Source: Dehalococcoidia bacterium (GTDB lineage Bacteria; Chloroflexota; Dehalococcoidia; GIF9; AB-539-J10). From it: a DNA stretch of 57,712 nucleotides. Under the pieces are notes generated by a model. The model saw nothing but the letters and a program-made list of their open reading frames with translations. It was not told the DNA's origin and made no database searches. The stretch is taken from contig JAGGYM010000058.1 in assembly GCA_021162545.1 (NCBI GenBank), forward strand, positions 1 through 57,712. The letters are read 5' to 3'. Positions 27,483 to 46,381 of this stretch are shown here, piece after piece. Every line of letters starts with the position of its first letter. The first letter of the stretch is position 1. The position numbers and the translations under genes were made by a program.

Positions 27483-30400
27483 ATGGAGCTAACGCGCAGA
27501 GATTTCCTGAAGTTTTCTGGTGGTGGTGCCGCAGGGATTGCCTTCTTTGGGTTTCTTGACCCCGCCTCGCTTATTGAGGCGGCCCCTATGGATATCCCCC
27601 TCAGGAAAGAAAAAATCGGCGAGAAAACCACGATATGTCCTTATTGTGGTGTGGGGTGCAGCCTGATAGTGGCTGCTGTAAATGGTAAAGCCACAAACAT
27701 TGAGGGAGACCCTGACCATCCTATCAACCAGGGGTCGCTGTGCAGCAAAGGCGCTGCCGTCATTCAGGTGACCAATAATCCCAGGCGGATAGGCAGCGTT
27801 CTCTACCGGGCGCCGGGCGCATATGACTGGGAGGAGAAATCCTGGGATTGGGCTATAGACCGCATCGCCCGTAACATCAAGAAAACGCGCGATGAGAACT
27901 GGACTCATACCGATAGTAAGGGACGCGTTGTCAACCGCACCGAGGCCATAGCCAACGATGGCAGTGCGGTAGTTAACAACGAAGAGGCCTATCTGATAAC
28001 GAAGCTCTGTCGCACCCTGGGCCTGACCTACATCGAACACTGTGCCCGGCTCTGTCATTCTTCTACCGTTGGCGCTCTGGGCGCATCTTTCGGGCGAGGC
28101 GCAATGACCAACCACTGGATCGATCTTAAAAATGCCGACTGTATTATGGTAATCGGGAGCAATGCCGCGGAGAATCATCCGATATCCTTCAAGTGGATAA
28201 CCAAAGCGATGAAAGAGAGGAACGCCAAGCTCATCAGCGTTGACCCTCGCTTCACCAGGACATCTTCCAAAGCAGATATATATGCCAAAATGAGGTCGGG
28301 CACCGATGTGGCGTTCATCGGCGGGATGATCAAATATGTAATTGAAGACATAGAGAGTAATCCCGGCAACTACAATATGACCTATGTTAAACAATATACC
28401 AATGCGACTCTGTTGGTGGACCCCAAGTTTGAAGGGCCGGCAGACCTGGATGGCCTCTTTACCGGTTATGACCCGGCTAAAAGGGAATACGACAGGTCAA
28501 CGTGGGCATATCAAATGGACGATAAGGGAATTCCCAGACGAGACCTTTCCCTCAAGGACCCGAATTGCGTTTTCCAGATTCTTAAGAAGCACTTCGCCCG
28601 CTATGACGTGGACACGGTGTGCAGCATCACGGGAACTCCCAAAGACACCTACATGAAAGTTATCAAGACATATGCGGCAACAGGCAAGACGGGCAAAGCG
28701 GCCACGATCGTCTATGCTATGGGTGCGACTCAGCATACCAATGCCGTCCAGATGATTCGTTCGTACGCTGTATTGCAATTGCTGCTGGGCAATATAGGAG
28801 TGGCCGGTGGTGGAATCAACGCGGCCAGAGGACAATCCAACGTTCAGGGGTCAACCGACCACGCCATCCTCTACCACATCCTTCCGGGCTACCTCAAGAC
28901 ACCCAGCCCTGACGACGTAGACCTGGAAACCTATCTCAAGAATCACACGCCCACGAGCGATGACCCCGAGAGCGCTAACTGGTGGCAGAACTATAAGAAA
29001 TATATGGTTAGCCTGCTCAAGGCGTGGTATGGCGACGCGGCCGTAGCTCCCAACTTTGCTTATGAGCATCTGGCCAAAGTTGAAGGTGACCACTCCCATA
29101 TCGCCATAACTGAGGCGATACACAAGGGAATAATAAAGGGCCTCATCTCATGGGGACACAACACCGCCGTTTCCGGCCCCAACGGCAATATGGAAAGGGC
29201 CGACCTGGACAAGCTCGACTGGGTTCTAGTCTCGGAGCTCTGGGAATCAGAAACTGCCGCCTTCTGGAAAAGGCCGGGAGTTGATCCGGGCAAGATAAAT
29301 ACCGAGGTTTTTCTCCTTCCCGTCAAGGCGTCGATGGAAAAGGAAGGCAGCATTACCAACAGTGGCAGATGGAGCCAGTGGCGCTATGCCTGTTGCGATG
29401 CTCCGGGAATGGCGCAGACGGACCTCTGGGTATTTACCAGGCTCGTCGAGAAATTGAAAGAGCTTTATGCTCAAGAGGGAGGCACCTACCCCGACCCCAT
29501 TCTAAACCTGACATGGGATTACGGGCATGACCCCGATGTTCACCAGGTTGCCAGAGAAATCAATGGCTATGACCTTACCACGGGCAAGCTCCTTCCCAGC
29601 TTTACCAAGCTCCGGGACGATGGTTCCACGACCTCGGGCAACTGGCTCTACTGCGGCAGCTACACCGAAGCCGGCAACATGGCGGCACGGAGGGACCTGA
29701 CCCAGACACCATCCCAGGCAAACATCGGACTTTTTCCCAACTGGTCATGGTGCTGGCCGGTGAACCGCCGCATTCTCTACAACAGGGCTTCGGTTGACCT
29801 CGAAGGAAATCCCTGGAACCCGGAGGCAGCGGTGGTCATCTGGAATCCCCTGCTTTCGAAATGGGAGTGCGATGTTCCCGATGGAGGCTGGCCTCCGATG
29901 GCGAATGAAGGAACCCGGCTTCCTTTCATCATGACCTCTGAGGGCAGAGGGCATCTCTTTGTCCCGGGCAAGGCACTTAAGGACGGGCCCGTGCCGGAGC
30001 ATTATGAGCCATGGGAAAGCCCGGTGCAGAACCTTATGTCCGGTACTCAAAGCGACCCCGTGATTACAATATGGGATTCCGACATGGATTTCAAAGGCGA
30101 ACCTAATAAATATCCCATCGTTTGTACCACATTCCGTCTCTCAGAGCACTGGCAGGCAGGGCAAATGACGAGAAATTTGCCCTGGCTGGTAGAGCTCATG
30201 CCGGAGATGTTCGTTGAAGTGGGCGAGGAGCTGGCCAGGGAAAAAGGCATCGTGAACGGGCAGAAAGCCATTGTGGAGTCGGCCAGGGGAAAGGTCGAGG
30301 CGGTGGCTATGGTTACCAGGCGTTTTACGCCCTTCATGATTGGAGGCAAGAAAGTTCACGAGATTGGTATGCCCTGGCACTGGGGATACATGGGTTTATC

Positions 30401-30500
30401 CAAGGGCGATAGCGCCAATCTCCTTACTGCCAACATAGGTGATGCTAATACCACGATTCCCGAATACAAGGCCTTCCTGTGTGATATCAGACCGGGGTGA
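27483..30500 (+). CDS. fdnG: Formate dehydrogenase alpha subunit (Mo/W-bisPGD), Tat-exported, Cys ligand
   Basis: TRRDFLK Tat motif, CPYCGVGC...C Fe-S motif, ARLCHSST active site, FGRGAMTN, RGQSNVQG, PEYKAF. Confidence 0.95.
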   Translation: MELTRRDFLKFSGGGAAGIAFFGFLDPASLIEAAPMDIPLRKEKIGEKTTICPYCGVGCSLIVAAVNGKATNIEGDPDHPINQGSLCSKGAAVIQVTNNPRRIGSVLYRAPGAYDWEEKSWDWAIDRIARNIKKTRDENWTHTDSKGRVVNRTEAIANDGSAVVNNEEAYLITKLCRTLGLTYIEHCARLCHSSTVGALGASFGRGAMTNHWIDLKNADCIMVIGSNAAENHPISFKWITKAMKERNAKLISVDPRFTRTSSKADIYAKMRSGTDVAFIGGMIKYVIEDIESNPGNYNMTYVKQYTNATLLVDPKFEGPADLDGLFTGYDPAKREYDRSTWAYQMDDKGIPRRDLSLKDPNCVFQILKKHFARYDVDTVCSITGTPKDTYMKVIKTYAATGKTGKAATIVYAMGATQHTNAVQMIRSYAVLQLLLGNIGVAGGGINAARGQSNVQGSTDHAILYHILPGYLKTPSPDDVDLETYLKNHTPTSDDPESANWWQNYKKYMVSLLKAWYGDAAVAPNFAYEHLAKVEGDHSHIAITEAIHKGIIKGLISWGHNTAVSGPNGNMERADLDKLDWVLVSELWESETAAFWKRPGVDPGKINTEVFLLPVKASMEKEGSITNSGRWSQWRYACCDAPGMAQTDLWVFTRLVEKLKELYAQEGGTYPDPILNLTWDYGHDPDVHQVAREINGYDLTTGKLLPSFTKLRDDGSTTSGNWLYCGSYTEAGNMAARRDLTQTPSQANIGLFPNWSWCWPVNRRILYNRASVDLEGNPWNPEAAVVIWNPLLSKWECDVPDGGWPPMANEGTRLPFIMTSEGRGHLFVPGKALKDGPVPEHYEPWESPVQNLMSGTQSDPVITIWDSDMDFKGEPNKYPIVCTTFRLSEHWQAGQMTRNLPWLVELMPEMFVEVGEELAREKGIVNGQKAIVESARGKVEAVAMVTRRFTPFMIGGKKVHEIGMPWHWGYMGLSKGDSANLLTANIGDANTTIPEYKAFLCDIRPG

Positions 30501-30572
30501 GGTGCGTAATAATATATAGAAAGGTCGTGATGTGACGAAAAATGGGTGTACCTGGAGCAATGGAGAAAGATA

Positions 30573-31379
30573 ATGGCTAAAGCGATGCTCAACGATGTTA
30601 CCATGTGTATTGGCTGCCGTGCATGTCAGATTGCCTGCAAGCAGTGGCATGACCTTCCTGCGGTAAAAACTCATAACCTGGGGACATTTGAAAACCCCCC
30701 TGACCTTTCGGCTGATACCTGGACCAGGATCCATTTCAGGGAATTCGATGACAATGGCACCTTGAAATGGCTTTTCAGCAAGCACCAGTGCCTGCACTGC
30801 ACAGAGGCATCATGCGTCGATGTCTGTCCTTCCGGCGCCCTCAAGCGGGACCCGCATTTCGGCTTCGTCACCTATAATGAAAACAGGTGTACCGGCTGCG
30901 GTTACTGCGTTGAGTTTTGCCCTTTCAAAATCCCCAGGATGGATGAACACGTCAGCAAGTTGCTGGGCACAGGGAAGATGGGAGGCAAGTGTGACTTCTG
31001 CTGCGACCGCGTGAGCAACGGTCTGGAGCCCGCCTGCGCCAAGGTATGCCCTACGGGAGCGATAAAGTTCGGTGAGAGGGATGCCCTGGTGATGGAAGGG
31101 AGGGAGAGAGTGGCAGCCTTGAAGGCGACTCATCCCGATGCCAATCTCTATGGAGAGTATGAACTCGGTGGCTTGCATATGCTCTATGTACTTGATAGGA
31201 AACCTGCGGTCTATGATTTCCCCGAGAACCCACAAAAGCCCGCTGCTGCCACCTCGCTGCCCATTGAGAAGTGGACCGGCATCGGTCTCGGTTTGCTGGC
31301 GGGTGCAGGTATCCTGACGGCATCGGTGGTTGCCCGGGCAAGGATGATTCAAGAGGAGAAAGAAAATGGCACAGAATAA
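30573..31379 (+). CDS. fdnH: Formate dehydrogenase iron-sulfur subunit
   Basis: CIGCRACQIAC, CLHC, CTGCGYC, KCDFC, PACAKVCP; C-terminal TM. Confidence 0.92.
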   Translation: MAKAMLNDVTMCIGCRACQIACKQWHDLPAVKTHNLGTFENPPDLSADTWTRIHFREFDDNGTLKWLFSKHQCLHCTEASCVDVCPSGALKRDPHFGFVTYNENRCTGCGYCVEFCPFKIPRMDEHVSKLLGTGKMGGKCDFCCDRVSNGLEPACAKVCPTGAIKFGERDALVMEGRERVAALKATHPDANLYGEYELGGLHMLYVLDRKPAVYDFPENPQKPAAATSLPIEKWTGIGLGLLAGAGILTASVVARARMIQEEKENGTE

Positions 31380-32109
31380 GAAGCAAAGAGGCCTGATACC
31401 ATCCGCCTTTCATACTATCGGCGATGTTGCCGGTACATTTCTCTTCAACTATCTTTTCGACGATCCCGAGAGAAAGGGCGTTATGCGCTTCAGCTTTCCG
31501 GCAAGGACCTTCCACTGGACAGTGGTGATTTTGGTCATGTTGCTGGGGCTGACAGGCCTGATTCTCTTCGTGCCCGGTTGGGGAGTGGCCTCGGTGGCGG
31601 GGTGGACGCGCATCGTTCACCGGATTTGCGTTTACATATCCGCCGTTGTTCTGGTAATTTACTTCATCACTTACCGTCAAAGCTGCCTGGCATATCTGAA
31701 GGAAGCTTTTACCTGGACGAAGGCCGATCTCGGATGGGTGAGAGCAGCGGTTGATTATTACCTTGGTGGTGATGAGAGCAAAATGCCTCCCCAAGGACAC
31801 ATAAATCCCGGCCAAAAGATATGGGAGCTCATTACCGTCGTCTGTGGAGCTCTTTTCATCATCACGGGGGCCGTGATGACCTTTGCCAAAGGCGCTGTAG
31901 CTCCGGGCGTCTTCCAGTGGTGTGTCTTTACTCACGATATCGCCTTCATCGTCGGTGGTGCCATGCTGATAGTACATATCGTGCTTGGCACGCTGCATCC
32001 CAGGATGAGCGAATCCCTTCGCTCGATGATAACGGGGAAGATATCCGTGCACTACGCCAAGAGCCACTATGGCAAGTGGTACGACAAGATAGCGGAGAAG
32101 CAATCTTAA
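31366..32109 (+). CDS. fdnI: Formate dehydrogenase cytochrome b (gamma) subunit
   Basis: Four TMs with heme His residues (RTFHW, IVHR, THD, VHI), PQGHINPGQK, SMITG...WY. Confidence 0.88.
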   Translation: MAQNKKQRGLIPSAFHTIGDVAGTFLFNYLFDDPERKGVMRFSFPARTFHWTVVILVMLLGLTGLILFVPGWGVASVAGWTRIVHRICVYISAVVLVIYFITYRQSCLAYLKEAFTWTKADLGWVRAAVDYYLGGDESKMPPQGHINPGQKIWELITVVCGALFIITGAVMTFAKGAVAPGVFQWCVFTHDIAFIVGGAMLIVHIVLGTLHPRMSESLRSMITGKISVHYAKSHYGKWYDKIAEKQS

Positions 32110-32112
32110 AAA

Positions 32113-32967
32113 GTGACTGTACAGGCAGATAGTCAGGTACTGGAACGGTTGCCGCAGTGGCAGGAACAGTCGCCGGGTTATATAGGCCTTCACCGGGAGC
32201 TCCTGCAGCTCAAGGTGGAATCTTCCCTCTTGCCCTTGCTGGAAGGGTACATTTCAGCAGCTGCACCAAAGCTCGCCTCCGCTGATAGCATTGCCCTTCA
32301 ATTTAGTGATTTACTTCCTCTCTGGACAGAGCTGGAAAGGCTGTTTCGCGAAGCAAGTTCCATCATTTGTGCCCGCATGCCCGACCAGTCTTCTGACGAC
32401 GCTTCTGCACTGATGCAGTTCGCAGGGCAACCATCGCTGATAAAGAGCACGGCCGAAAGCTGGTATCAGAATTCCCCCATGGCCGATGTGGCTGGAGAGA
32501 CGAACGTTGACCGGATGATACTTTCACTCTGCTTTAAAGCCGCCTTCCACCCCGTGCTGGTCAGGTATGCCGAAGTGCTGGCGCCACTGGTAAAGCAGGA
32601 CAGCTGGAGGAGGAATGTCTGCCCCGTATGCGGAGGCAGGCCGGATTTCGCCTTTCTCGACAAGGAAGCGGGTGCCCGCTGGTTAATTTGCTCCCGTTGC
32701 GACGCCGAATGGCTCTTTGCCCGCCTTAAGTGCCCTTTCTGCGAAACCCAGGACCAGGGCGCCTTATCCTATTCCACCGACGATAAACAGTTATACCGCC
32801 TTTATACCTGTGACCGCTGCCGGGCCTACATCAAAGCCATAGACCTTCGCTGCACCGAGAACGATGTCCTCCTTCCCCTGGAGCGCATCCTCACGCTCGA
32901 CCTAGACAGACAGGCAATAGAAGCAGGATATGCTCAGAGTTCGGCGTTTCCGGGTTCTGTTGAGTGA
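32113..32967 (+). CDS. fdhE: Formate dehydrogenase accessory protein FdhE
   Basis: CPVCG, CSRC..EW...R..CPFC, CDRC.AYIK, TLDLD. Confidence 0.9.
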   Translation: MTVQADSQVLERLPQWQEQSPGYIGLHRELLQLKVESSLLPLLEGYISAAAPKLASADSIALQFSDLLPLWTELERLFREASSIICARMPDQSSDDASALMQFAGQPSLIKSTAESWYQNSPMADVAGETNVDRMILSLCFKAAFHPVLVRYAEVLAPLVKQDSWRRNVCPVCGGRPDFAFLDKEAGARWLICSRCDAEWLFARLKCPFCETQDQGALSYSTDDKQLYRLYTCDRCRAYIKAIDLRCTENDVLLPLERILTLDLDRQAIEAGYAQSSAFPGSVE

Positions 32968-32998
32968 CTTGTTATTTTATTACCGTAAGGAGGTCATT

Positions 32999-33613
32999 GT
33001 GGAAAATAGAGTACAGTGGATTTACACCTCTCGCGACGACAAGGAATTACTCGAGCGCTACAACCAGTGGGCCAAGGACTACGATGCGGATCTCGAACAG
33101 GGCCATGAATATCAAGGGCCACAGCTTACTGCCGAGTTCTTCACCCGGTACGTACCGAATGGGGCAAGAGTTCTGGACGCTGGAGCCGGTACTGGCCTGA
33201 TGGGCGTGGCTTTGGCCGAATTGGGCTATCATGATTTAGTGGCCACGGATTTTTCTCAAGGCATGATCGACGAAGCACGCAAGAAGAACGTGTATCAGGA
33301 ACTCCACCAGATGGTGCTGGGGAAACCTTTAGACTTTGCTACCGACTGCTTTGATGCCATAGTGAGCGTTGGCGTGTTTACTGGGGCACACGCCCCAGCC
33401 AGCTCTTTTGATGAACTGGTTCGTATTACCAAACCAGGCGGACACATTATTTTCACTCTGTCCACCGAAGCATATGAGAACTCCGGGTTCAAGGAAAAGC
33501 TGTTTGCTCTGGAATCGGAGGGTAAGTGGAAGCTCATGGAGACAAGTCAGAAACAACTACTTACTAAAGAAGGTGCTGGCGTGTACCATCAGGTCTGGAT
33601 ATACCAGGTCTGA
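32999..33613 (+). CDS. Class I SAM-dependent methyltransferase
   Basis: YNQWAKDYD, VLDAGAGTG, SVGVFT, RITKPGG; AAGGAGG SD with GTG start. Confidence 0.88.
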   Translation: MENRVQWIYTSRDDKELLERYNQWAKDYDADLEQGHEYQGPQLTAEFFTRYVPNGARVLDAGAGTGLMGVALAELGYHDLVATDFSQGMIDEARKKNVYQELHQMVLGKPLDFATDCFDAIVSVGVFTGAHAPASSFDELVRITKPGGHIIFTLSTEAYENSGFKEKLFALESEGKWKLMETSQKQLLTKEGAGVYHQVWIYQV

Positions 33614-33815
33614 CAGATGAACTCAGGACACAGGACTTCAGGTGTCAGGACGTTACCCGTAACCTTTGTGGGGAAAGTGAGCCCGTTAGCCTGTTCACCA
33701 AGCGATCATTGAATCCGCATTCCCTAAAAGGTGGCAGGTCCAAATGGACAGGACTGCCTGATTAAAATAGGAGTATCCCACAGAGAGTTGCATTTACAGC
33801 TAAAGGGAGGAAGTC

Positions 33816-34655
33816 ATGCTAAAGCTGTCTCGAGTATCACCGCACGAGTGGGAGTTCGTCTATCCTGATATATACGGTGACTTGATGGACGAGTTCCACA
33901 GGGGGTGTGAACTATATGAGGAAGGCAATCTTGACGAAGCTGAAAAGATTTTCCAAGCAGTGCTCACTCAGATGCCCGACCATTTAGACGCAATCCATCA
34001 TTTGGCTCTGGTTCTATCCGATCGAAATCTATTAGACGAGGCACGAGATCTCTGGGAACAAACTGTCCGTATTGGTCACAAGGCATTCCCCCAGGATTTC
34101 GAAATAGAGAGAGACCTCCTTGAATGGGGATGGCTAGATAACAGGCCTTTTCTGCGATGCCTTCATGGATTGGCCCTGGCCAGATATGAGGACGGAGAAA
34201 CAGAGGAGGCTCTGAAGCTATTTCGGGAGTCACTCTCTTTGAACCCCGGAGATAATCAGGGTATTCGAGCCATGGCAGTAGAAGCATTGTTCGAGCTAGG
34301 AAGATTTGAAGATGCTCTTGAGATTACCATGAAGTATCCTAATGACATAATGCCCGAGACCATCTACGGGCGCGCCCTGATTCTTTTCAAGCTGGGGCAG
34401 CGACAAGAAGCGACTGCAGCACTTCAGAAAGCTATTGGATATTTACCCCTGGTAGGGAAAGAACTTCTGAAGACTAAACACCGGCTGCCCAGAACAGCGC
34501 GCCCGGGTACGGTTACCCTGGGTGGTGCTGATGAGGCTTACGATTATTGGGAACGTTCGGGCCGATTCTGGGAGGAAGATACTGCAGCGCTGGAATGGTT
34601 GAGAGAAATAATGAAGCAGACCGACCCCAAGGCCCATCGAGGTAAGTACCGATAG
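33816..34655 (+). CDS. Tetratricopeptide-repeat protein
   Basis: TPR-like helices; WGWLDNRPFLR and NPGDNQGIR motifs; GGAGG SD. Confidence 0.75.
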   Translation: MLKLSRVSPHEWEFVYPDIYGDLMDEFHRGCELYEEGNLDEAEKIFQAVLTQMPDHLDAIHHLALVLSDRNLLDEARDLWEQTVRIGHKAFPQDFEIERDLLEWGWLDNRPFLRCLHGLALARYEDGETEEALKLFRESLSLNPGDNQGIRAMAVEALFELGRFEDALEITMKYPNDIMPETIYGRALILFKLGQRQEATAALQKAIGYLPLVGKELLKTKHRLPRTARPGTVTLGGADEAYDYWERSGRFWEEDTAALEWLREIMKQTDPKAHRGKYR

Positions 34656-34872
34656 TAGTATTTTGATGACTACAGCAATGACCATTTGTCAGAGACAGAA
34701 AGACATTTGTCCAGGTTAGGCACTGAATTAAACAATAGCCTGTTCTGTTACCCGATTGCACAGACTGCCAGATTGGATTATCTGTGACCTCTAAACTATG
34801 GTTTTGCAGGGCCGTTGAAGCATCCCTTGAGCATTGTTTTCTAGCGCCATTGTTTGATTCTGACATGCTCCT

Positions 34873-35208
34873 TCCATAACCGGTGTCCGGTATGCGCATG
34901 TGCCTTTTGGCCCGGCGCCTGACAACTATGGAATATACTATGGCACGTTGCGTTCCAGGGAAGAGATAGAGTTACTGGAGGAGCTATACCCCAACGGCAA
35001 TGCAGGTGAAATTATCAGGGCGGTAAAAGAACCTGATTTGAACGTGTTTTCCGCTGGCGAACTTCGTATCATGGCCTCCGTTAAGGAACATTTTGAAGGA
35101 TTCAATGCCAGCAGAATAAGCCGCTTCTCTCACCAGGAGGTGGCTTACCAGGAAACGGACAACGGCGATATCATCTCCTATAACTACGCCAATCAGTTAA
35201 ATCTCTAG
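34873..35208 (+). pseudogene. C-terminal fragment of a Panacea (DUF4065/SocA-like) antitoxin
   Basis: SITGVRYAHVPFGPAP...SRFSHQEVAY...ISYNYA. In-frame TGA at 34861; N-terminal KL motif and start are missing. Confidence 0.75.
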
Positions 35209-35245
35209 TTCTTCGAAGTAGTGACGTTCTCTCTGGAAACTGGTC

Positions 35246-35920
35246 TCACCATCCAAATATTTTCTTTAACCGCTCTATTAGCGAAGTTGAGCTCTCAGGT
35301 GGCAATCCCTGTAATCCGTGCAGTTTATTTATCGTTTTCCGCCACCAATATTTGCGCAATGCTTCTCTCCGACCTAGTAGTTTTCTTAAAACTAAGTCAT
35401 ACTCACATATAATTCTTCTGCCGGTTCCTAAAACCGTTATTCGTAGAAGATATTGGCTAATATTGGGTTCCTCTCTGCTTTTGAGGTAAGCCCATATATC
35501 ACTGAATTTTTTATCAATGCCCTGAAAGGCAATAGTAGCGTGGAAGGCGTGGTTTCTCTGACTATCCCAAGCCTGGCCAGTAGATACCTTTCTCAATTCT
35601 TGGGATAATTCCCACCTTAAATTTTCTAGCTCCTCAGAAGGAGTTATATCAAAATATATAACCTTTGGGGTTTTATTAAAATAACTGAATCCTTTAATCT
35701 TGAAGGGGACTAAAGCATATCTTAGCCCTACCTTCTCTACTGCCGAAATCACCTTCCTGATATCATCAGTTCTGCCTGGGCCATACAAGGAAATATGAGG
35801 TACTACCCTTTTCCTTGTGACACCTCGAACTCGAAATTTCTTAGCGACAGAATATACAACGTCTCTCGCGTATTCTTTTGCATATCCGTGCATCCGGAAT
35901 TCAACTAAAAAGTGAGCCAC
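35246..35920 (-). CDS. 2H phosphoesterase (2'-5' RNA ligase/LigT-like) with C-terminal amphipathic tail
   Basis: Two HxS/T motifs (PHISL, FHATI); ends SLIERLKKIFGW. Confidence 0.85.
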   Translation of the reverse strand: MAHFLVEFRMHGYAKEYARDVVYSVAKKFRVRGVTRKRVVPHISLYGPGRTDDIRKVISAVEKVGLRYALVPFKIKGFSYFNKTPKVIYFDITPSEELENLRWELSQELRKVSTGQAWDSQRNHAFHATIAFQGIDKKFSDIWAYLKSREEPNISQYLLRITVLGTGRRIICEYDLVLRKLLGRREALRKYWWRKTINKLHGLQGLPPESSTSLIERLKKIFGW

Positions 35921-36049
35921 GAGCGTACCTATAATGTTAAAATGTTCTATTTACCCAATGTTGCTTCTATTTATCGCCGGATTCTCTCTATTCATCCTGA
36001 ATCACTGTCGTTTCTCAGGCTAATATTCCGCCTCCAAATTTTTATTATA

Positions 36050-36508
36050 TTAAGTGAACCATTCAAGTAACCTGCTCAAAAAGCTTGTTCTTCTTCTCCC
36101 CAGGCTGCTCTTCTTCTTATAGCTGTAATACTTCTCAATAATTTCCCTGGTTACACCCGAAATATGAACTCCTGAGTCAGGTTTGTAAAAAGCAACGTAC
36201 TCGATCTCATGTCGAGGACTTGGGTTACCATGAGCTTTGACCAAGCACACAGTGTGATGGTCCTGGAAATAGCCATGACCGTGCGATTTTGATATTCTTC
36301 CTCTATGCCTGAACAAGTATTTTGCATAGTAGGGTTTTAAGCTTGTCTCTTCCCATAATTCTCTCATGGCGGCTTCAATTCTCGGCTCGCCTCTGTTAGC
36401 CCCACCACCAGGCAGTAAAAAGATCTTGCTTCTACCTGCCGTAACAAGGATGCCTTTTTCTGTCTCGACAATTGCTGTTCCTCTACGTCGTTTTTTTACT
36501 TCAGACAT
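36050..36508 (-). CDS. NUDIX hydrolase with C-terminal amphipathic tail
   Basis: LPGGGANRGEPRIEAAMRELWEETSL Nudix box; AAAGGAG SD before MSEVKK; ends SFLSRLLEWFT. Confidence 0.9.
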   Translation of the reverse strand: MSEVKKRRRGTAIVETEKGILVTAGRSKIFLLPGGGANRGEPRIEAAMRELWEETSLKPYYAKYLFRHRGRISKSHGHGYFQDHHTVCLVKAHGNPSPRHEIEYVAFYKPDSGVHISGVTREIIEKYYSYKKKSSLGRRRTSFLSRLLEWFT

Positions 36509-36552
36509 TAGCCGCACTCCTTTCCAACTGATATCCCCCGGCCCGGGCAATC

Positions 36553-37134
36553 TTAGTCCTCAAAGATTTCCCTAGGCTCGTAGGTTTCCTGTCCTTCAAA
36601 AGTGAGGTAATCCAACTCCTTAAAGTTATGGACACGAGCCACGACATTCCGGGGGAATCGCCTTGTTCTCTCGTTATATCGTTGGGCGACCTGGTTATAT
36701 TCCAATCTGGTCTTGCGGAGCCTTCGCTCTACTTCAGAATCCCTTTCCATCAGAGAGATGTGCATTTGATCAGCTTTGAGGACTGGATACCTTTCAAATA
36801 CGGCCTGAAGCTTCAGATAGTTATTCTCTACCTCAGAAGCGAGCTTGACCTTTTCATTAAGGTCTGTATCTTTTGTCCATCTGCTTCTGGCTTCGATAAC
36901 GTCCCTCAATGCTTTATATTCATGGACATCATACTTCTTTGCTATTTGTGCCAGTGCATGAACATTATCCAGCCTCTCCTGCATAATTACGTCAACATCT
37001 GCAAATTTCCGTTGGGCCCTTGTGATCCAGTACTGGAACTTATTGTAAATGCCTATCCATGACTTGCCCAAAATCCCGAGTGCTATCGCGATGATGATAC
37101 CAACCACCAGCCAGATTATTGTTGCTACTGACAT
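36553..37134 (-). CDS. LemA family protein (divergent second copy)
   Basis: N-terminal TM, YN, ADVDVIMQER, HE, ERYPVLKAD, YNQ, FP.N.VA. Confidence 0.85.
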   Translation of the reverse strand: MSVATIIWLVVGIIIAIALGILGKSWIGIYNKFQYWITRAQRKFADVDVIMQERLDNVHALAQIAKKYDVHEYKALRDVIEARSRWTKDTDLNEKVKLASEVENNYLKLQAVFERYPVLKADQMHISLMERDSEVERRLRKTRLEYNQVAQRYNERTRRFPRNVVARVHNFKELDYLTFEGQETYEPREIFED

Positions 37135-37144
37135 AACTCACCTC

Positions 37145-37315
37145 CTAGACTGAGAAATAGTCCTTATTGCTGAGCTTTTTTGGCTTAATTTCAGCTTCAA
37201 AATAGCAAATCATCTGCTTAATTGCCTCTTGCTTAGTATTGAGGTCATGCACCAGTTTATATACCTCGACAATCTTATCCTCTTCTTTTGATAGGTCTAT
37301 TTGAATCTTAGCCAT
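37145..37315 (-). CDS. Small ribbon-helix-helix / DUF2683-like protein (56 aa; not in ORF track)
   Basis: MAKIQIDLSKEEDKIVEVYKLVHDLNTKQEAIKQMICYFEAEIKPKKLSNKDYFSV*. Alternating beta-strand followed by two helices. GGGAG SD; its stop overlaps the LemA SD (TAGGAGGTGA). Confidence 0.7.
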   Translation of the reverse strand: MAKIQIDLSKEEDKIVEVYKLVHDLNTKQEAIKQMICYFEAEIKPKKLSNKDYFSV

Positions 37316-37360
37316 ATTCCCACTCCCTTACGAGCAATTTATATACGTTATCTACTTATA

Positions 37361-37415
37361 ATATGCTATAATACCTTGATATATTATATCATAGCATATC
37401 ATTTTTATTATGCAA
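37361..37415 (-). promoter_or_regulatory. Promoter with overlapping inverted-repeat operator
   Basis: Minus strand TTGCAT-16 bp-TATGAT. Inverted repeat ATATGCTAT (37361-69) / ATAGCATAT (37391-99). Confidence 0.5.
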
Positions 37416-37612
37416 GAGGTCTTGGCCTGCCCATCCTGGAAATAGGACCACCTTGAATGCGCGGCTCCTGTTAGGATTTCACAACCACAGGCTATTGCCC
37501 AAGCCTGGCGGCAGGGGTACAATGACTATTGTAGGGGCACCCTTCCAAATCCTTGACAATAGAACAAATTGTTTCAATCCACCAGCTATATTCTGTCTGG
37601 GATGTCATTCGA

Positions 37613-38254
37613 CTACTTGTTCTTGAGTTTCCTCTGGTACTTGTCGGTAAAGCGGTTCTTTCTATAGACAAAAGTTCGGCCTTTGAGTTGTTTGCCAGCG
37701 TTAAAATCTCTGATGCGTTCTTTTACCCACCCAGAGAGGTCTTTGTAATCTACATCATGCCACTCGTGATCCTTAACCACTTGCGTTTTAGAAGATCCAA
37801 TAGCCTCTCCGTTGGTTTGGTCCTCGGCGAACTGTGGTTTGCCTACTCCAGCTTGCTCTCCCGCTAGATGGTAACCAACTGCGCTCAGCAGTACAGGAAG
37901 GTGCTTTGCAATCGGCGGAGGGAAACCATCCAACCACTGGGGGGTAGATAGGAAAAACGCCAATTCTTCAGGCATAATGTCTTCTGTGCGAAATGGGATT
38001 ATTGGGATACTTTTAGTTCTCGCCATTGCAACTTCCTGACCTACGCCCTCCGCCACATCAGCGTTGTGTGAGAATATGAGAACTAACAGACGGCTTTCTT
38101 TGAGTGCCTTAGCTAGTTGAGTGTGATATCCAACGCCGGGGATTAATTCTGCATCGATGAAGCATTCGATTCCGTTCTGCTCCAAGTATTCGTGAACTTC
38201 ACGCGCGATTCCCGCATCTTTCTTAGCATAACTGATAAAAATATCATGGCTCAT
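37613..38254 (-). CDS. TIR domain protein (TIR_2) with an unassigned basic C-terminal domain
   Basis: HDIFISY, CFID, LVLIFS, QEV (catalytic Glu position), PIIPFR, QWLD. Confidence 0.88.
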   Translation of the reverse strand: MSHDIFISYAKKDAGIAREVHEYLEQNGIECFIDAELIPGVGYHTQLAKALKESRLLVLIFSHNADVAEGVGQEVAMARTKSIPIIPFRTEDIMPEELAFFLSTPQWLDGFPPPIAKHLPVLLSAVGYHLAGEQAGVGKPQFAEDQTNGEAIGSSKTQVVKDHEWHDVDYKDLSGWVKERIRDFNAGKQLKGRTFVYRKNRFTDKYQRKLKNK

Positions 38255-38366
38255 GGCAACATTAGTAGCACAATCAATGTCATATCATAATCTTTCTGTA
38301 AAAGCTCTTACGCAGGCACCTCCAGCGTTAAGCATTCTACACCGCTACCAAATCCTTTTCAATCTT

Positions 38367-38618
38367 TGGAGTGAACCCCTGAAACTGGACACTCCAGGTC
38401 AGGGAGGTTGGGCAGGATAGAGACCTGTCCCCTTTTCTATACCAGTTGCAGTGAGAGTTTCTCAATTGACGGCCTCTCCGGCCATGGCAAACTCCATGGA
38501 AGTAAGGCTGCACACTCCATCAGAAAGGTCAATTTGCTTCAGGTCAAGCGGGGTATTGGGATCTTGCTACCTCCGCACAGGTTTACCCAAGAGATGTCCT
38601 GACTTTCTCCCTGCACAA
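38367..38618. mobile_element. Orphan IS ends / remnants (IS3-like end at 38367; another TG-terminated end near 38618)
   Basis: TGGAGTGAACCCCTGAAACTGGACAC resembles IS3-family termini; no transposase ORF. Confidence 0.35.
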
Positions 38619-38979
38619 TGTTGGCGGGCACCTAAAACCGGCCAGGGAAGGGCACCTCAAAAGCGGCCACTTAAGCAAGTAGACTGTGGCACACTTCATC
38701 GTAAAAGCAATGGAGGTGCCAGTGGGAAATCATCTTAAGATGGCTGACAAGCAACGGATACAGGCACTACTTGAACTTGGCTGGAGCTATCGCCGAATTC
38801 AACGGGAGACCGAGCTACGTCGGGAGGCGGTAGCCAGGTATGACTCCCGGCGAAATCCAAAAGCGGCCAAAGTGCCCACCGGCTCGGCAATCGCCTGTGA
38901 GCCGTACCGCGGCATCATTAAGGCGGCGATAGAGCAGGGACTGAGCGCCCAGCATATCTGGCAGGACCTTCAGGAATAT
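38619..38979 (+). mobile_element. istA: IS21-family remnant: left end plus truncated istA
   Basis: TGTTGGCGGGCACCTAAAACCGGCCA-GGGAA-GGGCACCTCAAAAGCGGCCAC repeated terminal motifs; N-terminal HTH frame NHLKMADKQRIQALLELGWSYRRIQRET...GLSAQHIWQDL. Confidence 0.8.
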
Positions 38980-39112
38980 TGAGGTGGTTCCCAAATTTTG
39001 GACAGGTTGTTAAGTGTAGGTTCTGCCCCTTTAGGAGAAACGGGCTACACAACCGTAGGAGAAAGCAGGAAGCCTCTCATCGTAGGTGGCACTAAAAACG
39101 GAGAATACCTCA
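38980..39112. mobile_element. 133-bp MITE-like, internally deleted IS3-family element
   Basis: Begins TGAGGTGGTTCCCAAATTTTGGAC and ends GTGGCACTAAAAACGGAGAATACCTCA (imperfect IRs, both TGAGGT); coincides with the istA truncation. Confidence 0.55.
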
Positions 39113-39226
39113 ACGGGACAATCATATTTCTATGTTGGATCTCAGAGAATGTGGAAAGCACGCTAAAACAGGGACACTCCACGGTGGTCTGCTATATAAA
39201 TACGGGAAACAGGGAGGTGATGGCTA

Positions 39227-39772
39227 ATGAACACATAACAGTTATTCAGTGAAATTGATTGTTATTTTCTAGCAAAGCGCGACTACATCCAGCAATTTAC
39301 TTCCTCGGAGCGTCAGGTAGAGGGATGGTTCAAGGGTGAACTGATTCATCTTTTCACTTCCCTACAAGCTAAAGGGGAATTGGAGGGGTGGGAACCCGAA
39401 GTTGTGATACCAGGACTCGGCAAAAAGAAGGTGGACTTCAGGGTAAAGTTGGACAATGGCTTTGCTTGGCTAGAACTTAAGAGCTTATATCATGGACAGC
39501 AACGAGAACAACCGATTGACCTCGGGATATATTTTTACAAGGATAGTGTGGGTATCTGGGGTGATGTGCAAAAACTGGCGTCTGTTGAGGGAGGCCATGG
39601 CTACTGCATTATGTTCATATACCCCAAACCAGAGGTGGCCCGATGGCAAAAACTTCTAACGAAATACAGAAAGCTGATAGGGAATTACACGTTCCAAGAA
39701 AAAAGCAACATGTCCCAGTTTCCAAGTGGTCTTTACATTGCCAAGATTGAGATAGCGCAAGGTAGCAACTAG
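39227..39772 (+). pseudogene. PD-(D/E)XK nuclease-like protein interrupted by a nonsense codon
   Basis: GGAGGTGA SD, ATG AAC ACA TAA, then an open frame QLFSEID...EGWFKGE...KKVDF...WLELK to 39772. Confidence 0.6.
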
Positions 39773-39948
39773 TACATCGGTTGGATTATATTGTGTAGTG
39801 TCTCTGTTTTAAGCGCTCTAGATTTTGTTGGTTTTTATCACACAATAGCCCAGAATGTTGAGCCTGCGATAGTAAGGTTACCTACAATACAGGGAAATCG
39901 CCCTGTTTTTCTTAAAATGATAACCGCCTTCTGATATGATTAAGCAGA

Positions 39949-41250
39949 ATGAAGCTGACGGTTCACCGGGGCACGCACGAGATTGGCGGAAGCTGTGTTG
40001 AGTTGTGCTCCAACTCCGAGAGGGCACGAATAGTCATCGATGTTGGTATGCCTCTGGTAACATCGAATGGGTCACCGTTCGAATGGCGCCACTATAAAGA
40101 CCTCTCTCAAGAGCAGCTTCTGGAGCATAAGATACTTCCTTCAGTTGATGGGTTATACAGTCACCAGAAACCTTCTGTTTCCGCCGTGGTACTCTCCCAT
40201 GCACACCAGGACCACTATGGATTTTTCCGCTTCATCCACCCGGATATCCCGCTGTATATGAGTCTCGGTACAGAAAGCCTTGTAGAGATTTCCAATCTAT
40301 TCCTTGGCACCGGGGTCAACCTTGACCAGGCACAAGTATTTACTATGTGGCAGCCATTTCAAGTGGAAGAATTCACTATCACTCCATACTTGATGGATCA
40401 CTCGGCGCCGGACGCTGCTGCATTTCTCATTGAGGCCGACGGGCAACGTTTATTCTACACCGGTGACTTTCGCGGCCATGGCCGCAAGCAGGTGCTGCTT
40501 GAAAGACTACTTGAGAATCCTATATCTAATGTAGATTGCCTGATAATGGAAGGCTCAATGATTGGCAGAGAGAAAGGCCAGTATCATGATGAGGTTGCTG
40601 TAGAGAGAGCAATTCATAATATTATCGCTGAACAGCAGTCTTATACTTTTGTTTTCTGCTCGTCTCAAAATCTGGATAGGCTGGTATCGATTTATCGTGC
40701 GGTCAAGCGGGCTGGCAAGATGCTTGTCATCGACCTTTACACAGCCTTCGTCCTAGATAAACTAGGTTCCATTTCGTCTAACATCCCACAATTTGACTGG
40801 GGAGAGATCCGCGTACTCTACGCATATTCCCATGCACGCAAGCTGGCGGAATATGACAAAAAGCTACTCTACAAATATAAGCAGGCCAAAATCGGATGGG
40901 AAGAAATACAGGCGACTCCACAAGATATGGTGATTCTTAGCAAGGACAACTTTTACTTCCGTAGAATAATCCTTCCGAAACTGGGAGCAGGCGGTGGAGC
41001 CAGGGCAATTTACTCTATGTGGCATGGATATCTAGAAAGGGCAGACTTGCCACAATTCCTTTCATTCCACAATATTGATCTGATAGAAATCCATACCAGT
41101 GGGCATGCATATGTCGAAGATCTCAAAAAACTAGCCTGTACCTTAAATCCCCGTTGTCTTGTACCTATTCATACCTTCTATCCGGAGCAGTATGGAAGCC
41201 TGTACAAGAATATCGTTCAGTTGGACGATGGCCAGATCTATTATTTGTGA
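39949..41250 (+). CDS. Metallo-beta-lactamase/beta-CASP hydrolase (RNase J-like)
   Basis: EIGGSC, SHAHQDH, DHS, YTGDFR, HTSGH, PIHT. Confidence 0.9.
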   Translation: MKLTVHRGTHEIGGSCVELCSNSERARIVIDVGMPLVTSNGSPFEWRHYKDLSQEQLLEHKILPSVDGLYSHQKPSVSAVVLSHAHQDHYGFFRFIHPDIPLYMSLGTESLVEISNLFLGTGVNLDQAQVFTMWQPFQVEEFTITPYLMDHSAPDAAAFLIEADGQRLFYTGDFRGHGRKQVLLERLLENPISNVDCLIMEGSMIGREKGQYHDEVAVERAIHNIIAEQQSYTFVFCSSQNLDRLVSIYRAVKRAGKMLVIDLYTAFVLDKLGSISSNIPQFDWGEIRVLYAYSHARKLAEYDKKLLYKYKQAKIGWEEIQATPQDMVILSKDNFYFRRIILPKLGAGGGARAIYSMWHGYLERADLPQFLSFHNIDLIEIHTSGHAYVEDLKKLACTLNPRCLVPIHTFYPEQYGSLYKNIVQLDDGQIYYL

Positions 41251-41274
41251 GGTAATTTGTAAGGAGGCAGCAAA

Positions 41275-42156
41275 ATGGAGCAGGCGATGGTTATCAAGCA
41301 CTATCTGGAACTAGATGCGGAGCGATGGAAGAAGACAAAGAGGGATCTCCTGCCATTAGTGAGACTTATCAACAACTCCGGGGGAGAATACAGCCTTCAA
41401 CTTCGCGAAGGCTACTTCAACATCTATTATCAGGGCAATTCACTTGCACTGGTCAGACCAAATAAAAATGGGACTTATACCGCCTCTATACACAATAAAT
41501 TTGCTCGGGATGAAACGTTAGAGAAGCTGAAACGATACTCGTCTTCTCAACATGCAGGGAATCACAATAAATATGTATCTTTCACTATTCGGCCTCAGAA
41601 TCTTCACCAGTTCTTTCAGAAGAGCAATATCAACAGCCTGAGTAGTAAAATACGGGCAGTGCACAACGGGGAAGAAATAACCTCTGAGCAGGTCTTAATC
41701 ACTGACAACCCACCATCCAGGAAATTCATCATCATTGACCGCCAGGTAGCAGACCATGTTAACAGAGCCCAGATAGACTTACTGGCACTCAGGAGGGATT
41801 CAGCAGACAAACCTTTCCACTTCCTGATTATTGAAGTAAAGCAGGGAAGAAACCCTGAGCTTCATGAGAAGGTCGGCAGGCAACTGAGCGGGTATGTTGA
41901 CCACATCAGAAAGTACATAAAGGACTATGTCGCCTGCTATAAAGAGAACTATCGACAAAAGAAGGAACTCGGTCTTTTCGATTCCAGCTTGCCGGACACC
42001 ATCGACATCGATGTTGAGGAGGAAACGGTGGAAGGAATGGTAGTCGCCTGTGGGTACTCACAGCTCGGAAAGGAGGCTATCAAGAATCTTCGTCAAAAGA
42101 TGACGGAAAACAAGTGGGTTTTCAAGGTGGAGCAACCAAAGCTGACATTACGCTGA
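41275..42156 (+). CDS. Hypothetical protein with PD-(D/E)XK nuclease-like motif
   Basis: QIDLLAL...LIIEVK.G motif; N-terminal LQLREGYFNIYYQGNSL; AAGGAGG SD; 24 bp after the MBL gene. Confidence 0.6.
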   Translation: MEQAMVIKHYLELDAERWKKTKRDLLPLVRLINNSGGEYSLQLREGYFNIYYQGNSLALVRPNKNGTYTASIHNKFARDETLEKLKRYSSSQHAGNHNKYVSFTIRPQNLHQFFQKSNINSLSSKIRAVHNGEEITSEQVLITDNPPSRKFIIIDRQVADHVNRAQIDLLALRRDSADKPFHFLIIEVKQGRNPELHEKVGRQLSGYVDHIRKYIKDYVACYKENYRQKKELGLFDSSLPDTIDIDVEEETVEGMVVACGYSQLGKEAIKNLRQKMTENKWVFKVEQPKLTLR

Positions 42157-42301
42157 GTAACAAAGATTGCTGCTAAAAGCCCATGGCAACCCGGCCGAAA
42201 GGGGAGCAGCAGGCGCTGCAGAAATACAGCAAGACAGCAATGCATAAATGCGAGCCCGAGGCATAAGAAAAATCGGGCCGTGCCGGGGGAGTCCGTGCGT
42301 C

Positions 42302-42331
42302 TTGAAAAGAGTTCGAGTTACAGGATATACT
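42302..42331 (+). promoter_or_regulatory. Sigma70-type promoter for the CBS / ATP synthase operon
   Basis: TTGAAA-18 bp-TATACT. Confidence 0.45.
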
Positions 42332-42361
42332 TTACAATCTAGCTGCTGAAGGAGAGAAATC

Positions 42362-43030: not shown

Positions 43031-43058
43031 CGGCAATACCCAGGGAGACATTATTGTT

Positions 43059-45367: not shown

Positions 45368-45382
45368 AGTGGAGTATAGAGA

Positions 45383-45862: not shown

Positions 45863-45883
45863 TAAATGTCTCGGAGGTGAAAG

Positions 45884-46366: not shown

Positions 46367-46381
46367 AGGTCATGTCGAGAA

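Follow-up and report, generated by a model that had tools for sequence, protein, structure and literature searches.

Why would a bacterium keep the gene of a LemA-family membrane protein in one series with two unrelated nucleotide hydrolases, and why would both hydrolases end in similar tails? This question is raised by a locus of a Dehalococcoidia bacterium, which lies on a 57,712-nt contig (JAGGYM010000058.1 of assembly GCA_021162545.1; the whole contig is called the window here). The host genome (G000, of which the window is contig C29) is 1.39 Mb in size and 99.76% complete, and its nearest relatives in public collections are metagenome-assembled genomes (MAGs) of Dehalococcoidia and Chloroflexota. 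Five minus-strand genes stand in series at the locus and encode a TIR-domain protein, a small RHH-like protein, a divergent LemA, a NUDIX hydrolase and a 2H phosphoesterase (Table 1). A first-pass annotation had described the last four as co-oriented, AT-rich genes. All four open reading frames (ORFs) are indeed present on the minus strand, and the G+C content of the operon is 0.421 compared with 0.516 for the genome. A value as low as this is found in just 0.4% of 2531 genome windows of the same size. That annotation had passed over the TIR gene, which is co-oriented and lies 297 nt upstream of the RHH-like gene, as well as the 9.4-kb island in which the cluster is set. We suggest, tentatively and with a probability that falls a little short of even, that these genes form a self-repressed, membrane-associated cassette that would degrade ADP-ribose-type or cyclic-phosphate nucleotides and would be tied to NADase conflict systems, being paired here with the TIR gene.

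The four genes are a recurrent predicted operon. We sampled 80 loci, 42 of them by 2H (one genome per species) and 38 by LemA (metagenomes, with LemA proteins 57-91% identical). Both NUDIX and 2H genes are found in 13 of the 20 LemA-sampled loci that have at least 1.3 kb of downstream sequence, which bears out the co-occurrence of LemA, NUDIX and 2H that had been proposed from the window. Taken singly in these 20 loci, 2H occurs in 16, NUDIX in 16, and either 2H or a metallophosphoesterase in 19. Across the LemA sample, a NUDIX gene lies downstream in 28 of 36 loci, and an RHH-like gene lies upstream in every one of the 27 loci with enough sequence. The 42 loci sampled by 2H contain NUDIX in 11 cases, the same LemA subfamily in six and the small RHH-like protein in four; two of the six LemA loci end before the position of the upstream gene. 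The carriers in this sample are Dehalococcoidia and two Woesearchaeota, and the order RHH-LemA-2H is also seen in two Woesearchaeota genomes. NUDIX-2H pairs that have no LemA are found in anaerobic methanotrophic archaea (ANME-1), Methanoperedens and Methanosarcinales. In a tree of 27 2H rows (at least 170 aa and with the first His motif; fragments and the metallophosphoesterase ORFs of L002-L043 were left out), Chloroflexota and one contig labelled Nitrospira form a clade (support 85/97) among archaeal clades. Since the tree is unrooted, we do not name a donor of the transfer.

The similar amphipathic, basic C-terminal tails that had been claimed for the two enzymes are real, and they are conserved in both. 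In 2H, the linker motif followed by at least 12 residues is kept in at least 103 of the best 120 cluster representatives, about 12 more have a variant motif and five are tailless. The form of the tail in 23 of 25 aligned homologues is Q-G-L-P, a Pro/Glu-rich linker and then S-L-[IMT]-x-[RW]-h-[KR]-[KRQ]-h-F-G-aromatic, where h is hydrophobic. The 2H protein of the window thus has a conserved aromatic-basic helix (residues 190-203), a Pro-rich linker and the amphipathic tail (208-224), and in its AlphaFold2 (AF2) model residues 204-212 form a linker of low confidence, beyond which a terminal helix (213-221) stands apart. The NUDIX tail (residues 138-152) comes after a basic linker and reads S-[IL]-[IL]-N-R-[IL]-x-E-W-[LF], which ends 28 of the 37 complete orthologues. 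Two further NUDIX genes of the genome have no such tail. Archaeal 2H relatives with 50-60% identity retain an amphipathic basic C-terminal helix of different sequence, and the free-standing metallophosphoesterases of related operons have a similar helix at the N-terminus. These conserved amphipathic tails are features kept in relatives and not chance, as far as homologous sequences can tell.

We measured the hydrophobic moment on the best 11-mer within the last 20 residues and compared it across 1364 ORFs of the genome. The 2H tail reaches 0.735 (17th of 1364) and the NUDIX tail 0.667 (60th of 1364), and the 103 conserved 2H tails have a median of 0.71, with 82% of them above the 95th percentile of the genome. 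MinD has no match above the cut-off in this genome, so an internal positive control for the hydrophobic moment is lacking. The MinD-type tails to which the first-pass annotation had likened these helices are described in PMC8155659 as transplantable C-terminal amphipathic helices. Common to both tails is S-h-h-x-R-h-x-x-h-h-G-aromatic, in which the hydrophobic positions were imposed by the search pattern while S1, R5, G11 and the aromatic residue at 12 are independent of it. Because this shared motif goes beyond amphipathicity, docking to a common partner is possible, either instead of lipid binding or besides it. The tails are also kept where no LemA is nearby (L005, L007 and the ANME and Methanosarcinales loci). 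We infer that they hold NUDIX and 2H at the membrane.

Both enzymes have the residues expected of their families. The Nudix box consensus is G-x5-E-x7-R-E-U-x-E-E-x-G-U, and the complete box in the window, G35-x5-E41-x7-R49-E50-L51-W52-E53-E54-T55-S56-L57, departs from it at the last G, which is S. Invariant in 32 NUDIX orthologues are G34, G35, E41, R49, E50, L51, E53 and E54. The best solved relative is 3f13, an uncharacterised Nudix protein (E 3e-17), and the nearest NCBIfam models are RNA pyrophosphohydrolase and RNA deprotection pyrophosphohydrolase, all far under their cut-offs. The 2H protein, for which we found 329 homologues, has both of the HxS/T motifs that had been noticed (H42-I-S44 and H127-A-T129), with both His residues invariant in 25 of 25 aligned homologues. 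Its AF2 model (predicted local distance difference test score, pLDDT, 71) has a core at residues 1-175 and then two further helices. A Foldseek search with this model gave 24 matches in the PDB at E <= 0.001, and among the matches listed all have the 2H fold. The top match is the Arabidopsis cyclic phosphodiesterase 1jh6 (E 4.3e-6), which acts on ADP-ribose 1''-2'' cyclic phosphate (Appr>p); Usb1, YjcG and LigT-type proteins lie within two orders of magnitude of it. The nearest named NCBIfam model is RNA 2',3'-cyclic phosphodiesterase, far under its cut-off. Section 3.4.5 of PMC9503650 states that the cyclic phosphate in 1''-2'' cADPr is resolved by 2H domains and that derivatives of ADPr are cleaved by Nudix domains.

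The gap of about 130 bp between the NUDIX and 2H genes had been regarded as a possible boundary between transcripts. The gap is real, at 129 nt, and the boundary is improbable on comparison with relatives. The 3' part of the spacer together with the 2H start matches the TPR-2H junction of L004 (75% over 113 nt), and the spacer region also matches L066 and L074 (88% over 35 nt). The spacer thus corresponds by homology to the DNA between TPR and 2H in relatives, and we take it as a deletion scar that a lost gene has left. A search for terminator-like sites on the minus strand gave none in the spacer, and the NUDIX and 2H genes overlap by 13-16 nt in 11 of the relatives listed.

LemA is the presumed membrane component of the operon. 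Its match spans positions 2-145 of the 149 in the PF04011 profile, and it has a single N-terminal transmembrane helix at about residues 4-23. The LemA domain is probably cytoplasmic, because Lys and Arg residues follow the helix (positive-inside rule). Mean column identity is 82% among 32 orthologues. Its divergence, noted earlier, is borne out by a score of 108.7 bits compared with 201.2 for the canonical LemA encoded elsewhere in the window, and by 29% identity between the two. The canonical gene adjoins that of an M48/HtpX-type peptidase, just as the first-pass annotation had stated. A recent preprint (10.64898/2026.10.21.759321) speaks of membrane remodelling by the LemA family and of LemA as an interaction or organising hub.

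The first gene of the operon encodes the small RHH-like protein, and its TAG stop codon does sit within the AGGAGG that precedes the LemA ATG, so the overlap of stop codon and Shine-Dalgarno sequence is as had been claimed. The ORF also appears to be unannotated, with its exact sequence absent from the protein collection, though 269 homologous clusters are present. It is highly conserved, with a mean column identity of 91% among 13 orthologues and 75% identity to the Woesearchaeota copies. The earlier assignment to the RHH/DUF2683 group was in part sustained. We assign the protein to the RHH class because of its strand-helix-helix pattern, its neighbours in the ESM Atlas, where the nearest clusters are named DUF2683 (0.99) and the nearest Pfam-bearing ones are RHH_1, CopG and VapB (0.88-0.89), and the NCBI name 'DUF2683 family protein' on two of the 120 homologues listed from the 269 clusters. 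Membership is not supported by Pfam profiles: the best match is DUF6290 (14.5 bits against a cut-off of 27, E 0.04), and no RHH or DUF2683 model was found at E <= 10 for any of the 13 orthologues. A PDB profile search with the protein gave chance-level matches only (best E 0.11).

Upstream of this gene there is a promoter-like element, TTGCAT and TATGAT with a 16-nt spacer, and an operator-like palindrome that overlaps the -10 element and whose arms of 17 nt are 82% complementary. None of 15 aligned upstream regions departs from TTG at the -35 or from TAT.AT at the -10 element, and all of them share the consensus C-T-T-G-C-A-[AT]-A-A-T, a spacer, T-G-n-T-A-T-[AG]-A-T, a TA-rich stretch and a G-rich ribosome-binding site. 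The palindrome of the window exceeds 30 of 30 shuffles, and its arms co-vary among loci (GCTAT/ATAGC in the window, GGTAT/ATACC in L057, where the repeat has perfect 15-nt arms). Because just 6 of 25 loci have palindromes that beat all 30 shuffles, this element is suggestive and not proof. With the left arm over the -10 element, a DNA operator is more likely than an RNA hairpin. The conserved promoter with its co-varying palindrome suggests autoregulation by the RHH-like protein, and the earlier proposal of an autoregulated operon therefore stands as a fit to these features, weakened by the small share of loci in which the palindrome exceeds all shuffles.

The genes that accompany this core in relatives vary. 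A Macro-type protein is encoded between LemA and NUDIX in L052 (NCBIfam E 7.6e-8). An ADP-ribosylglycohydrolase (ARG; PF03747, E 1e-54) is present in six loci among the 80 and the window region (L006, L010, L040, L069, L071 and L073). Other cassette genes of relatives encode a uridine-kinase-like P-loop kinase, a TPR protein, a calcineurin-like phosphoesterase that is either free-standing or fused to 2H, and a 370-aa protein that has no Pfam match and a conserved H..HD..D pattern, which suggests an HD phosphohydrolase. By their predicted families, these companions are a tool-kit for ADP-ribose derivatives and for cyclic or terminal phosphates. They fit, together with the link to TIR, with a predicted role in nucleotide-signal processing.

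That link comes from the TIR gene and from a rare domain at the end of its product. The TIR_2 match is the only one in the genome. Residues S62, D66 and E74 are invariant in nine of nine TIR proteins that bear the C-terminal domain (C-domain), and the conserved Glu of the TIR fold is catalytic in TIR-domain NADases. ThsB-type models match the protein weakly (best E 8.8e-5), and the NCBIfam model of Thoeris type III ThcB4 gives 30 bits against a cut-off of 220. The 55-aa C-domain, which follows a linker, has the pattern D-H-x-W-H ... W-V-K ... G-x-x-F-x-Y-R ... Y-x-x-R-L. A word-indexed search with this region returned the query itself only, and a profile search used in its place found 88 representative clusters among 1.84 billion proteins. 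The domain occurs in one of 401 genomes of the class, as a single copy in the host genome. Its AF2 model has a pLDDT of 88; Foldseek gave no PDB match at E <= 0.001 (best 1.9) and a wide VIA-align search gave a best Z of 4.1, which does not prove a new fold.

The same domain is carried by enzymes of the operon. Eight of the 80 loci that we sampled encode it, and the proteins that bear it there are the HD-like protein, the kinase and a DnaJ protein. It closes the kinase of L010, L069 and L071 and the DnaJ protein of L010, and two copies are on the HD-like protein inside the RHH-LemA-NUDIX-x-2H operons of L046 and L065; the HD-like protein of L053 has one full copy, and its ORF stops at the start of a second. 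The gene order in L006 is TIR-C-domain, ARG, 2H, and in L025 a TIR-HD-like-C-domain protein is encoded beside a 2H-metallophosphoesterase fusion. TIR is fused to the HD-like domain in P0138 and P0146 and, by alignment, to the kinase-like domain in P0150. A Pfam scan covered 65 of the 88 C-domain carriers, with P0137 counted under both PRK and DnaJ. It gave PRK-type kinase in nine, TIR in eight, DnaJ in seven, CAP in four, TPR in three, zinc-ribbon in two, and SIR2, Mrr nuclease, protein kinase plus HD, VWA and ABM in one each; five have weak matches to other families and 23 have no family. Tpt1/KptA is the classical source of Appr>p. The 99.76% complete host genome has no match to Tpt1/KptA (PF01885), while a control search found PF01885 in 3 of 14 reference genomes. 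Since the TIR protein is the sole one of the genome, is linked through the C-domain, and no Tpt1/KptA is found, we take it as the likeliest local source of substrate or as a partner, and we infer a functional tie between it and the cassette.

Several loci of relatives have further neighbours. In a Chloroflexia MAG (L010, 1372-5672), genes for VWA, DnaJ-C-domain and kinase-C-domain proteins, ARG and a tailed 2H follow one another in this order, with neither LemA nor NUDIX. The arrangement resembles the ARG-centred systems with vWA chaperones that are treated in PMC9503650. In Methanoperedens and Nitrosopumilaceae (L018, L028, L032, L041 and L043), the gene of a large protein adjoins 2H or NUDIX-2H, upstream in four of these loci and downstream in L043. 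The large protein of L018 (2833-4551) combines an AN1 zinc finger with a CAP (cysteine-rich secretory protein) domain. In Nitrosopumilus L043 (2500-4893), a 797-aa protein with an N-terminal 2H domain and two AAA+ ATPase modules is encoded directly upstream of a protein with the length of a 2H-metallophosphoesterase. Small predicted membrane proteins with alike N-termini follow 2H in L046 (6477-7169) and L061 (5849-6151); none follows 2H in the window.

The cluster lies on an acquired island. The flanks at 27429-32931 and 42359-46360 map 135 nt apart on a single contig of a same-genus genome (G149), and the DNA between them is therefore an insertion of 9.4 kb. Its content is the operon, the TIR gene, insertion sequence (IS) remnants, a Panacea-domain fragment, a methyltransferase, a TPR protein, an MBL-fold protein and unassigned ORFs. 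Of 401 genomes of the class, 9 have the 2H gene; it was not found in the 12 other genomes of the same family. By this comparison of genomes, the four-gene cluster is a horizontally acquired, self-contained cassette. No tRNA genes were found at the ends of the island, where the repeats are short, two-copy and at chance level, and there are no integrase or conjugation genes at the island.

Table 1. Features of the window that are treated in the text, in order of position (numbered from the first nucleotide of the window).
Feature	Position	Strand	Details
M48/HtpX-type peptidase	7254-8468		Adjoins canonical LemA; pair at 7254-9050
Canonical LemA	8487-9050
Methyltransferase	32930-33613	+	Left edge of island; PADLOC mad2 (MADS system), E 1.6e-16
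Low-GC insertion	32932..42358	.	9.4 kb, G+C 0.462; flanks 135 nt apart in same-genus genome G149
Panacea ORF, 102 aa	34900-35208	+	Convergent with 2H; SocA/Panacea profile positions 28-111 of 113, 25.4 bits vs cut-off 25.7
2H phosphoesterase, 224 aa	35920-35246	-	GTG start; PF13563, 61.6 bits vs cut-off 27, E 1.2e-16
NUDIX-2H spacer, 129 nt	35921-36049	-	Remnant of a longer arrangement
NUDIX hydrolase, 152 aa	36050..36508	-	Likely ATG 36508, ORF open to TTG at 36550; PF00293, 38 bits vs cut-off 21.1, E 2e-9
Divergent LemA, 193 aa	37134-36553	-	PF04011, 108.3 bits vs cut-off 26.2, E 4.1e-31
ORF antisense to LemA, 144 aa	36628-37062	+
RHH/DUF2683-like protein, 56 aa	37315-37145	-	First operon gene
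Promoter-like element and operator-like palindrome	37340..37415	-	Upstream of the RHH-like gene
Inverted-repeat arms	37382-37398 and 37357-37373		17 nt each
-10 element (TATGAT)	37393-37388	-
-35 element (TTGCAT)	37415-37410	-
C-domain of TIR protein, 55 aa	37616-37780	-	Residues 160-213, after linker
TIR-domain protein, 213 aa	37613..38254	-	PF13676 (TIR_2), 64.4 bits vs cut-off 28; residues 5-111
IS debris	38260-38982		Between the TIR gene and the next ORFs
ORF within IS debris, 98 aa	38686-38982
Three genes	39380-42156	+	130-aa ORF of no family; 433-aa MBL-fold protein with RMMBL motif; 293-aa ORF with no Pfam or PADLOC match
V/A-type ATPase operon	43059-52809	+	Complete (I, two c/K, E, C, F, A, B, D), then a DUF61 gene

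Other features of the island and its surroundings can be described briefly. Pieces of the IS debris are copied on other contigs of the genome (for example C67, 96% over 83 nt) and on three contigs of a same-genus genome; the 98-aa ORF within it gave no Pfam match, and we take it to be an N-terminal fragment of an IS21-type transposase. The 102-aa Panacea ORF is probably a truncated gene, because only the C-terminal part of the domain matches and the score is under the cut-off. The three genes in the right part of the island may be a further accessory module, and the mad2 match of the methyltransferase may be general methyltransferase similarity only. The ORF antisense to LemA is unsupported and is taken as spurious. 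The V/A-type ATPase operon to the right of the island is notable as part of a Chloroflexota-type genome.

How might the cassette work? In the reading that we favour, the small RHH-like protein would repress the conserved promoter by way of the palindrome over the -10 element, and the single-pass LemA would mark a site at the membrane. The C-terminal amphipathic basic helices would hold NUDIX and 2H at the inner membrane face, where the two enzymes would degrade small nucleotides in which a pyrophosphate bridge occurs together with a cyclic or 2'-linked phosphate. ADP-ribose derivatives such as Appr>p and related NAD-derived products, or else 2',3'-cyclic nucleotides, would be the most likely substrates, with AMP and ribose phosphates as the expected products. 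The adjacent TIR protein would most likely supply such nucleotides on the spot, or would work with the cassette as part of one conflict system, and the cassette could then act as an arm for clearing, self-protection or signal termination. The first-pass annotation had likewise proposed a membrane-localised nucleotide-signal module. Its proposal fits the recurrent operon, the conserved tails, the companion genes and the TIR link, but its membrane part is qualified by the motif that the tails share, which makes docking to a protein possible.

Several observations weigh against this reading. A high hydrophobic moment is unspecific, as 17 and 60 of the 1364 ORFs score as high as the 2H and NUDIX tails, respectively. 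The NUDIX substrate cannot be read from the sequence, given that its best solved relative is itself uncharacterised. A true TIR domain is adjacent in just 2 of the 42 2H-sampled and in none of the 38 LemA-sampled loci, so most operons work without a neighbouring TIR. 2H enzymes are not known to cleave the ribose-ribose glycosidic bond of TIR-made cyclic ADP-ribose isomers, which makes the chemistry from a TIR product to 2H uncertain. The counts for the operon are not independent, because the loci that were sampled are closely related (LemA 78-91% identical). RHH, LemA and 2H had no match in PADLOC, and NUDIX had only a chance-level one (E 0.014); among the genes of relatives, the metallophosphoesterase, ARG, Macro and kinase were likewise without a match, and the HD-like protein had only a chance-level Cas3 match (E 0.0063). 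Among viral contigs, none of 80 pattern matches was confirmed as a relative. Finally, the LemA preprint (10.64898/2026.10.21.759321) reports an inner-membrane LemA with a periplasmic partner, while the topology of LemA here is a prediction.

A bolder version, which we think unlikely, is that the RHH-LemA cassette and the TIR gene are one undescribed, membrane-organised immune module that is shared across archaea and Dehalococcoidia and has two recruitment devices. A TIR effector (elsewhere SIR2 or Mrr) would be recruited to the LemA-marked membrane site along with a variable set of enzymes that clear nucleotides. One device would be the shared S-h-h-x-R-h-x-x-h-h-G-aromatic amphipathic tail, and the other the 55-aa C-domain as a new adaptor, with no match among the solved structures searched. 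The role of the cassette would be to keep NAD-derived signalling within bounds at the membrane or to end it there, and the module would have moved between DPANN or methane-cycling archaea and Dehalococcoidia. We found no description of such an operon in the literature, as judged on titles and abstract openings with supplements aside. The word LemA is absent from the main text of PMC9503650, which deals with 2H, Nudix, Macro and ARG systems.

The same genes could serve other ends. Housekeeping salvage near the membrane would use 2',3'-cyclic nucleoside monophosphates from RNA decay, or ADP-ribose from NAD turnover, and the TIR gene would stand beside the operon in an accessory island by chance. 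The enzymes can be taken in this way, as a cyclic phosphodiesterase followed by a phosphatase (metallophosphoesterase or HD) and the uridine-kinase-like kinase, and the very high conservation of the RHH-like and LemA proteins (91% and 82% mean column identity), the missing matches in both PADLOC and viral contigs, and the missing TIR neighbour in most operons all agree with it. However, the cluster is patchy (9 of 401 class genomes, missing from the same-genus genome) and sits within a low-GC insertion, close relatives swap the cassette genes, the only TIR gene that the genome has lies right beside the cluster, and operon enzymes share the rare C-domain with TIR, SIR2 and Mrr proteins, direct fusions included. 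We therefore hold salvage to be an improbable account. A different doubt concerns the tails, which could be docking peptides for a common protein receptor (the cytoplasmic domain of LemA, each other or another hub) and not for lipid, with the function otherwise as we propose. This would explain why the tails of two unrelated enzymes share a motif beyond amphipathicity and why a dedicated small domain replaces the tail on other cassette enzymes, and LemA proteins are described as interaction hubs in the preprint 10.64898/2026.10.21.759321. Yet the tails persist where no LemA is in reach (L005, L007, ANME, Methanosarcinales), the hydrophobic positions are kept while the polar ones vary freely, and the helix can be N-terminal, on free-standing metallophosphoesterases; docking in place of membrane binding thus seems distinctly unlikely to us.

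Two further explanations turn on the targets of the enzymes. If the cassette processed RNA ends after damage by ribonuclease toxins, 2H would open 2',3'-cyclic phosphates, NUDIX would remove NAD or other caps, and the phosphatases and the kinase would reset the termini. The nearest NCBIfam names for 2H and NUDIX are RNA enzymes, although all lie far under their cut-offs, Usb1 and LigT-type RNA enzymes are among the 2H fold matches, and 2H-Nudix-kinase neighbourhoods in phage RNA repair are described in PMC9503650. RNA ligase, Hen1, RtcB and KptA are, however, absent from the operons and the genome, membrane tethering has no obvious role in RNA repair, and the Macro and ARG partners indicate ADP-ribose, so that we give RNA repair little credence. 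Enzymes of this kind might also be the cargo of a mobile element that destroys the immune signalling nucleotides of the host. Phages use 2H and NUDIX enzymes so (PMC9503650, including section 3.4.5), and the cluster is in an inserted island with IS remnants. Against such an anti-defence role, none of the 80 pattern matches in viral contigs was confirmed, the island has no integrase, conjugation gene or tRNA, the operon has its own repressor-like gene and membrane protein, and its links are to effector-type proteins (TIR, SIR2, Mrr) rather than to mobile-element genes. We regard this as very improbable.

The membrane-associated nucleotide-degrading cassette that we favour can be set beside systems already described. 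In the disposal of Appr>p, Tpt1/KptA is followed by a 2H cyclic phosphodiesterase, a Macro phosphatase and a Nudix ADP-ribose pyrophosphatase, and the pairing of 2H/cRec with Nudix is found in section 3.4.5 of PMC9503650. Here, too, 2H and Nudix are encoded together, L052 adds a Macro gene, which the window lacks, and the best fold match of 2H is the plant Appr>p phosphodiesterase. In contrast to that pathway, no Tpt1/KptA was found in the genome, the genes are in one repressor-headed operon with a membrane protein, anchor-like tails and a TIR link, and the substrate is predicted only. ARG-centred operons are predicted to counter viral ADP-ribosylation (PMC9503650, section 3.8). They share with our cassette a variable set of ADP-ribose-processing genes (ADP-ribosylglycohydrolase, calcineurin-like phosphatase, Macro), a negative regulator and a patchy distribution, and the relative L010 has accessory genes of the vWA or chaperone type. 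The core here is instead RHH-LemA with NUDIX and 2H, ARG is absent from the window and present only in some relatives, and a 56-aa RHH-like protein stands as regulator in place of a Nudix-HTH or WYL factor.

The single components compare in a similar way. Like the MinD tail, the tails are short basic amphipathic helices at the extreme C-terminus after a flexible linker, and they are apparently transplantable, being found on unrelated enzymes and at either protein end. Unlike it, they are on hydrolases and not on a dimerising ATPase, they have no evident nucleotide-dependent switch, and the two share a motif. The LemA of the island belongs to the same Pfam family as the LemA/MamQ proteins, canonical members of which pair with an M48/HtpX-type or TPM protein, and has the same single N-terminal transmembrane helix, but it follows a small RHH-like gene and precedes nucleotide hydrolases, not a protease. 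With Thoeris and other TIR defence, the locus has in common a TIR_2 domain with the conserved Glu and weak ThsB-type matches; it differs from Thoeris in that no ThsA-type partner (SLOG with SIR2, Macro or a transmembrane part) is among the 11 island proteins scanned, and the C-domain has no structural match. We class the cassette with the known NAD/ADP-ribose nucleotide-processing operons, as a variant of them. What we believe to be new is the measured conservation of the tails with their shared motif, the TIR link through a rare domain and fusions, the bounds of the island, the promoter with its palindrome and the origin of the gap.

If our reading is true, one subfamily of LemA would be tied to nucleotide metabolism or immunity, in a widespread family whose role is only now emerging. 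The degradation of nucleotide signals in prokaryotes would be confined spatially by simple, transplantable helices on soluble hydrolases. Through the rare C-domain, TIR, SIR2 and Mrr effectors would be linked to HD, kinase and DnaJ proteins, and more systems could be sought by means of this domain. At about 2 kb, or 2.7 kb once the TIR gene is counted, the cassette is compact and self-contained. Since it would be common to bacteria and archaea of anoxic sediments and vents, it would point to gene exchange between the two domains.

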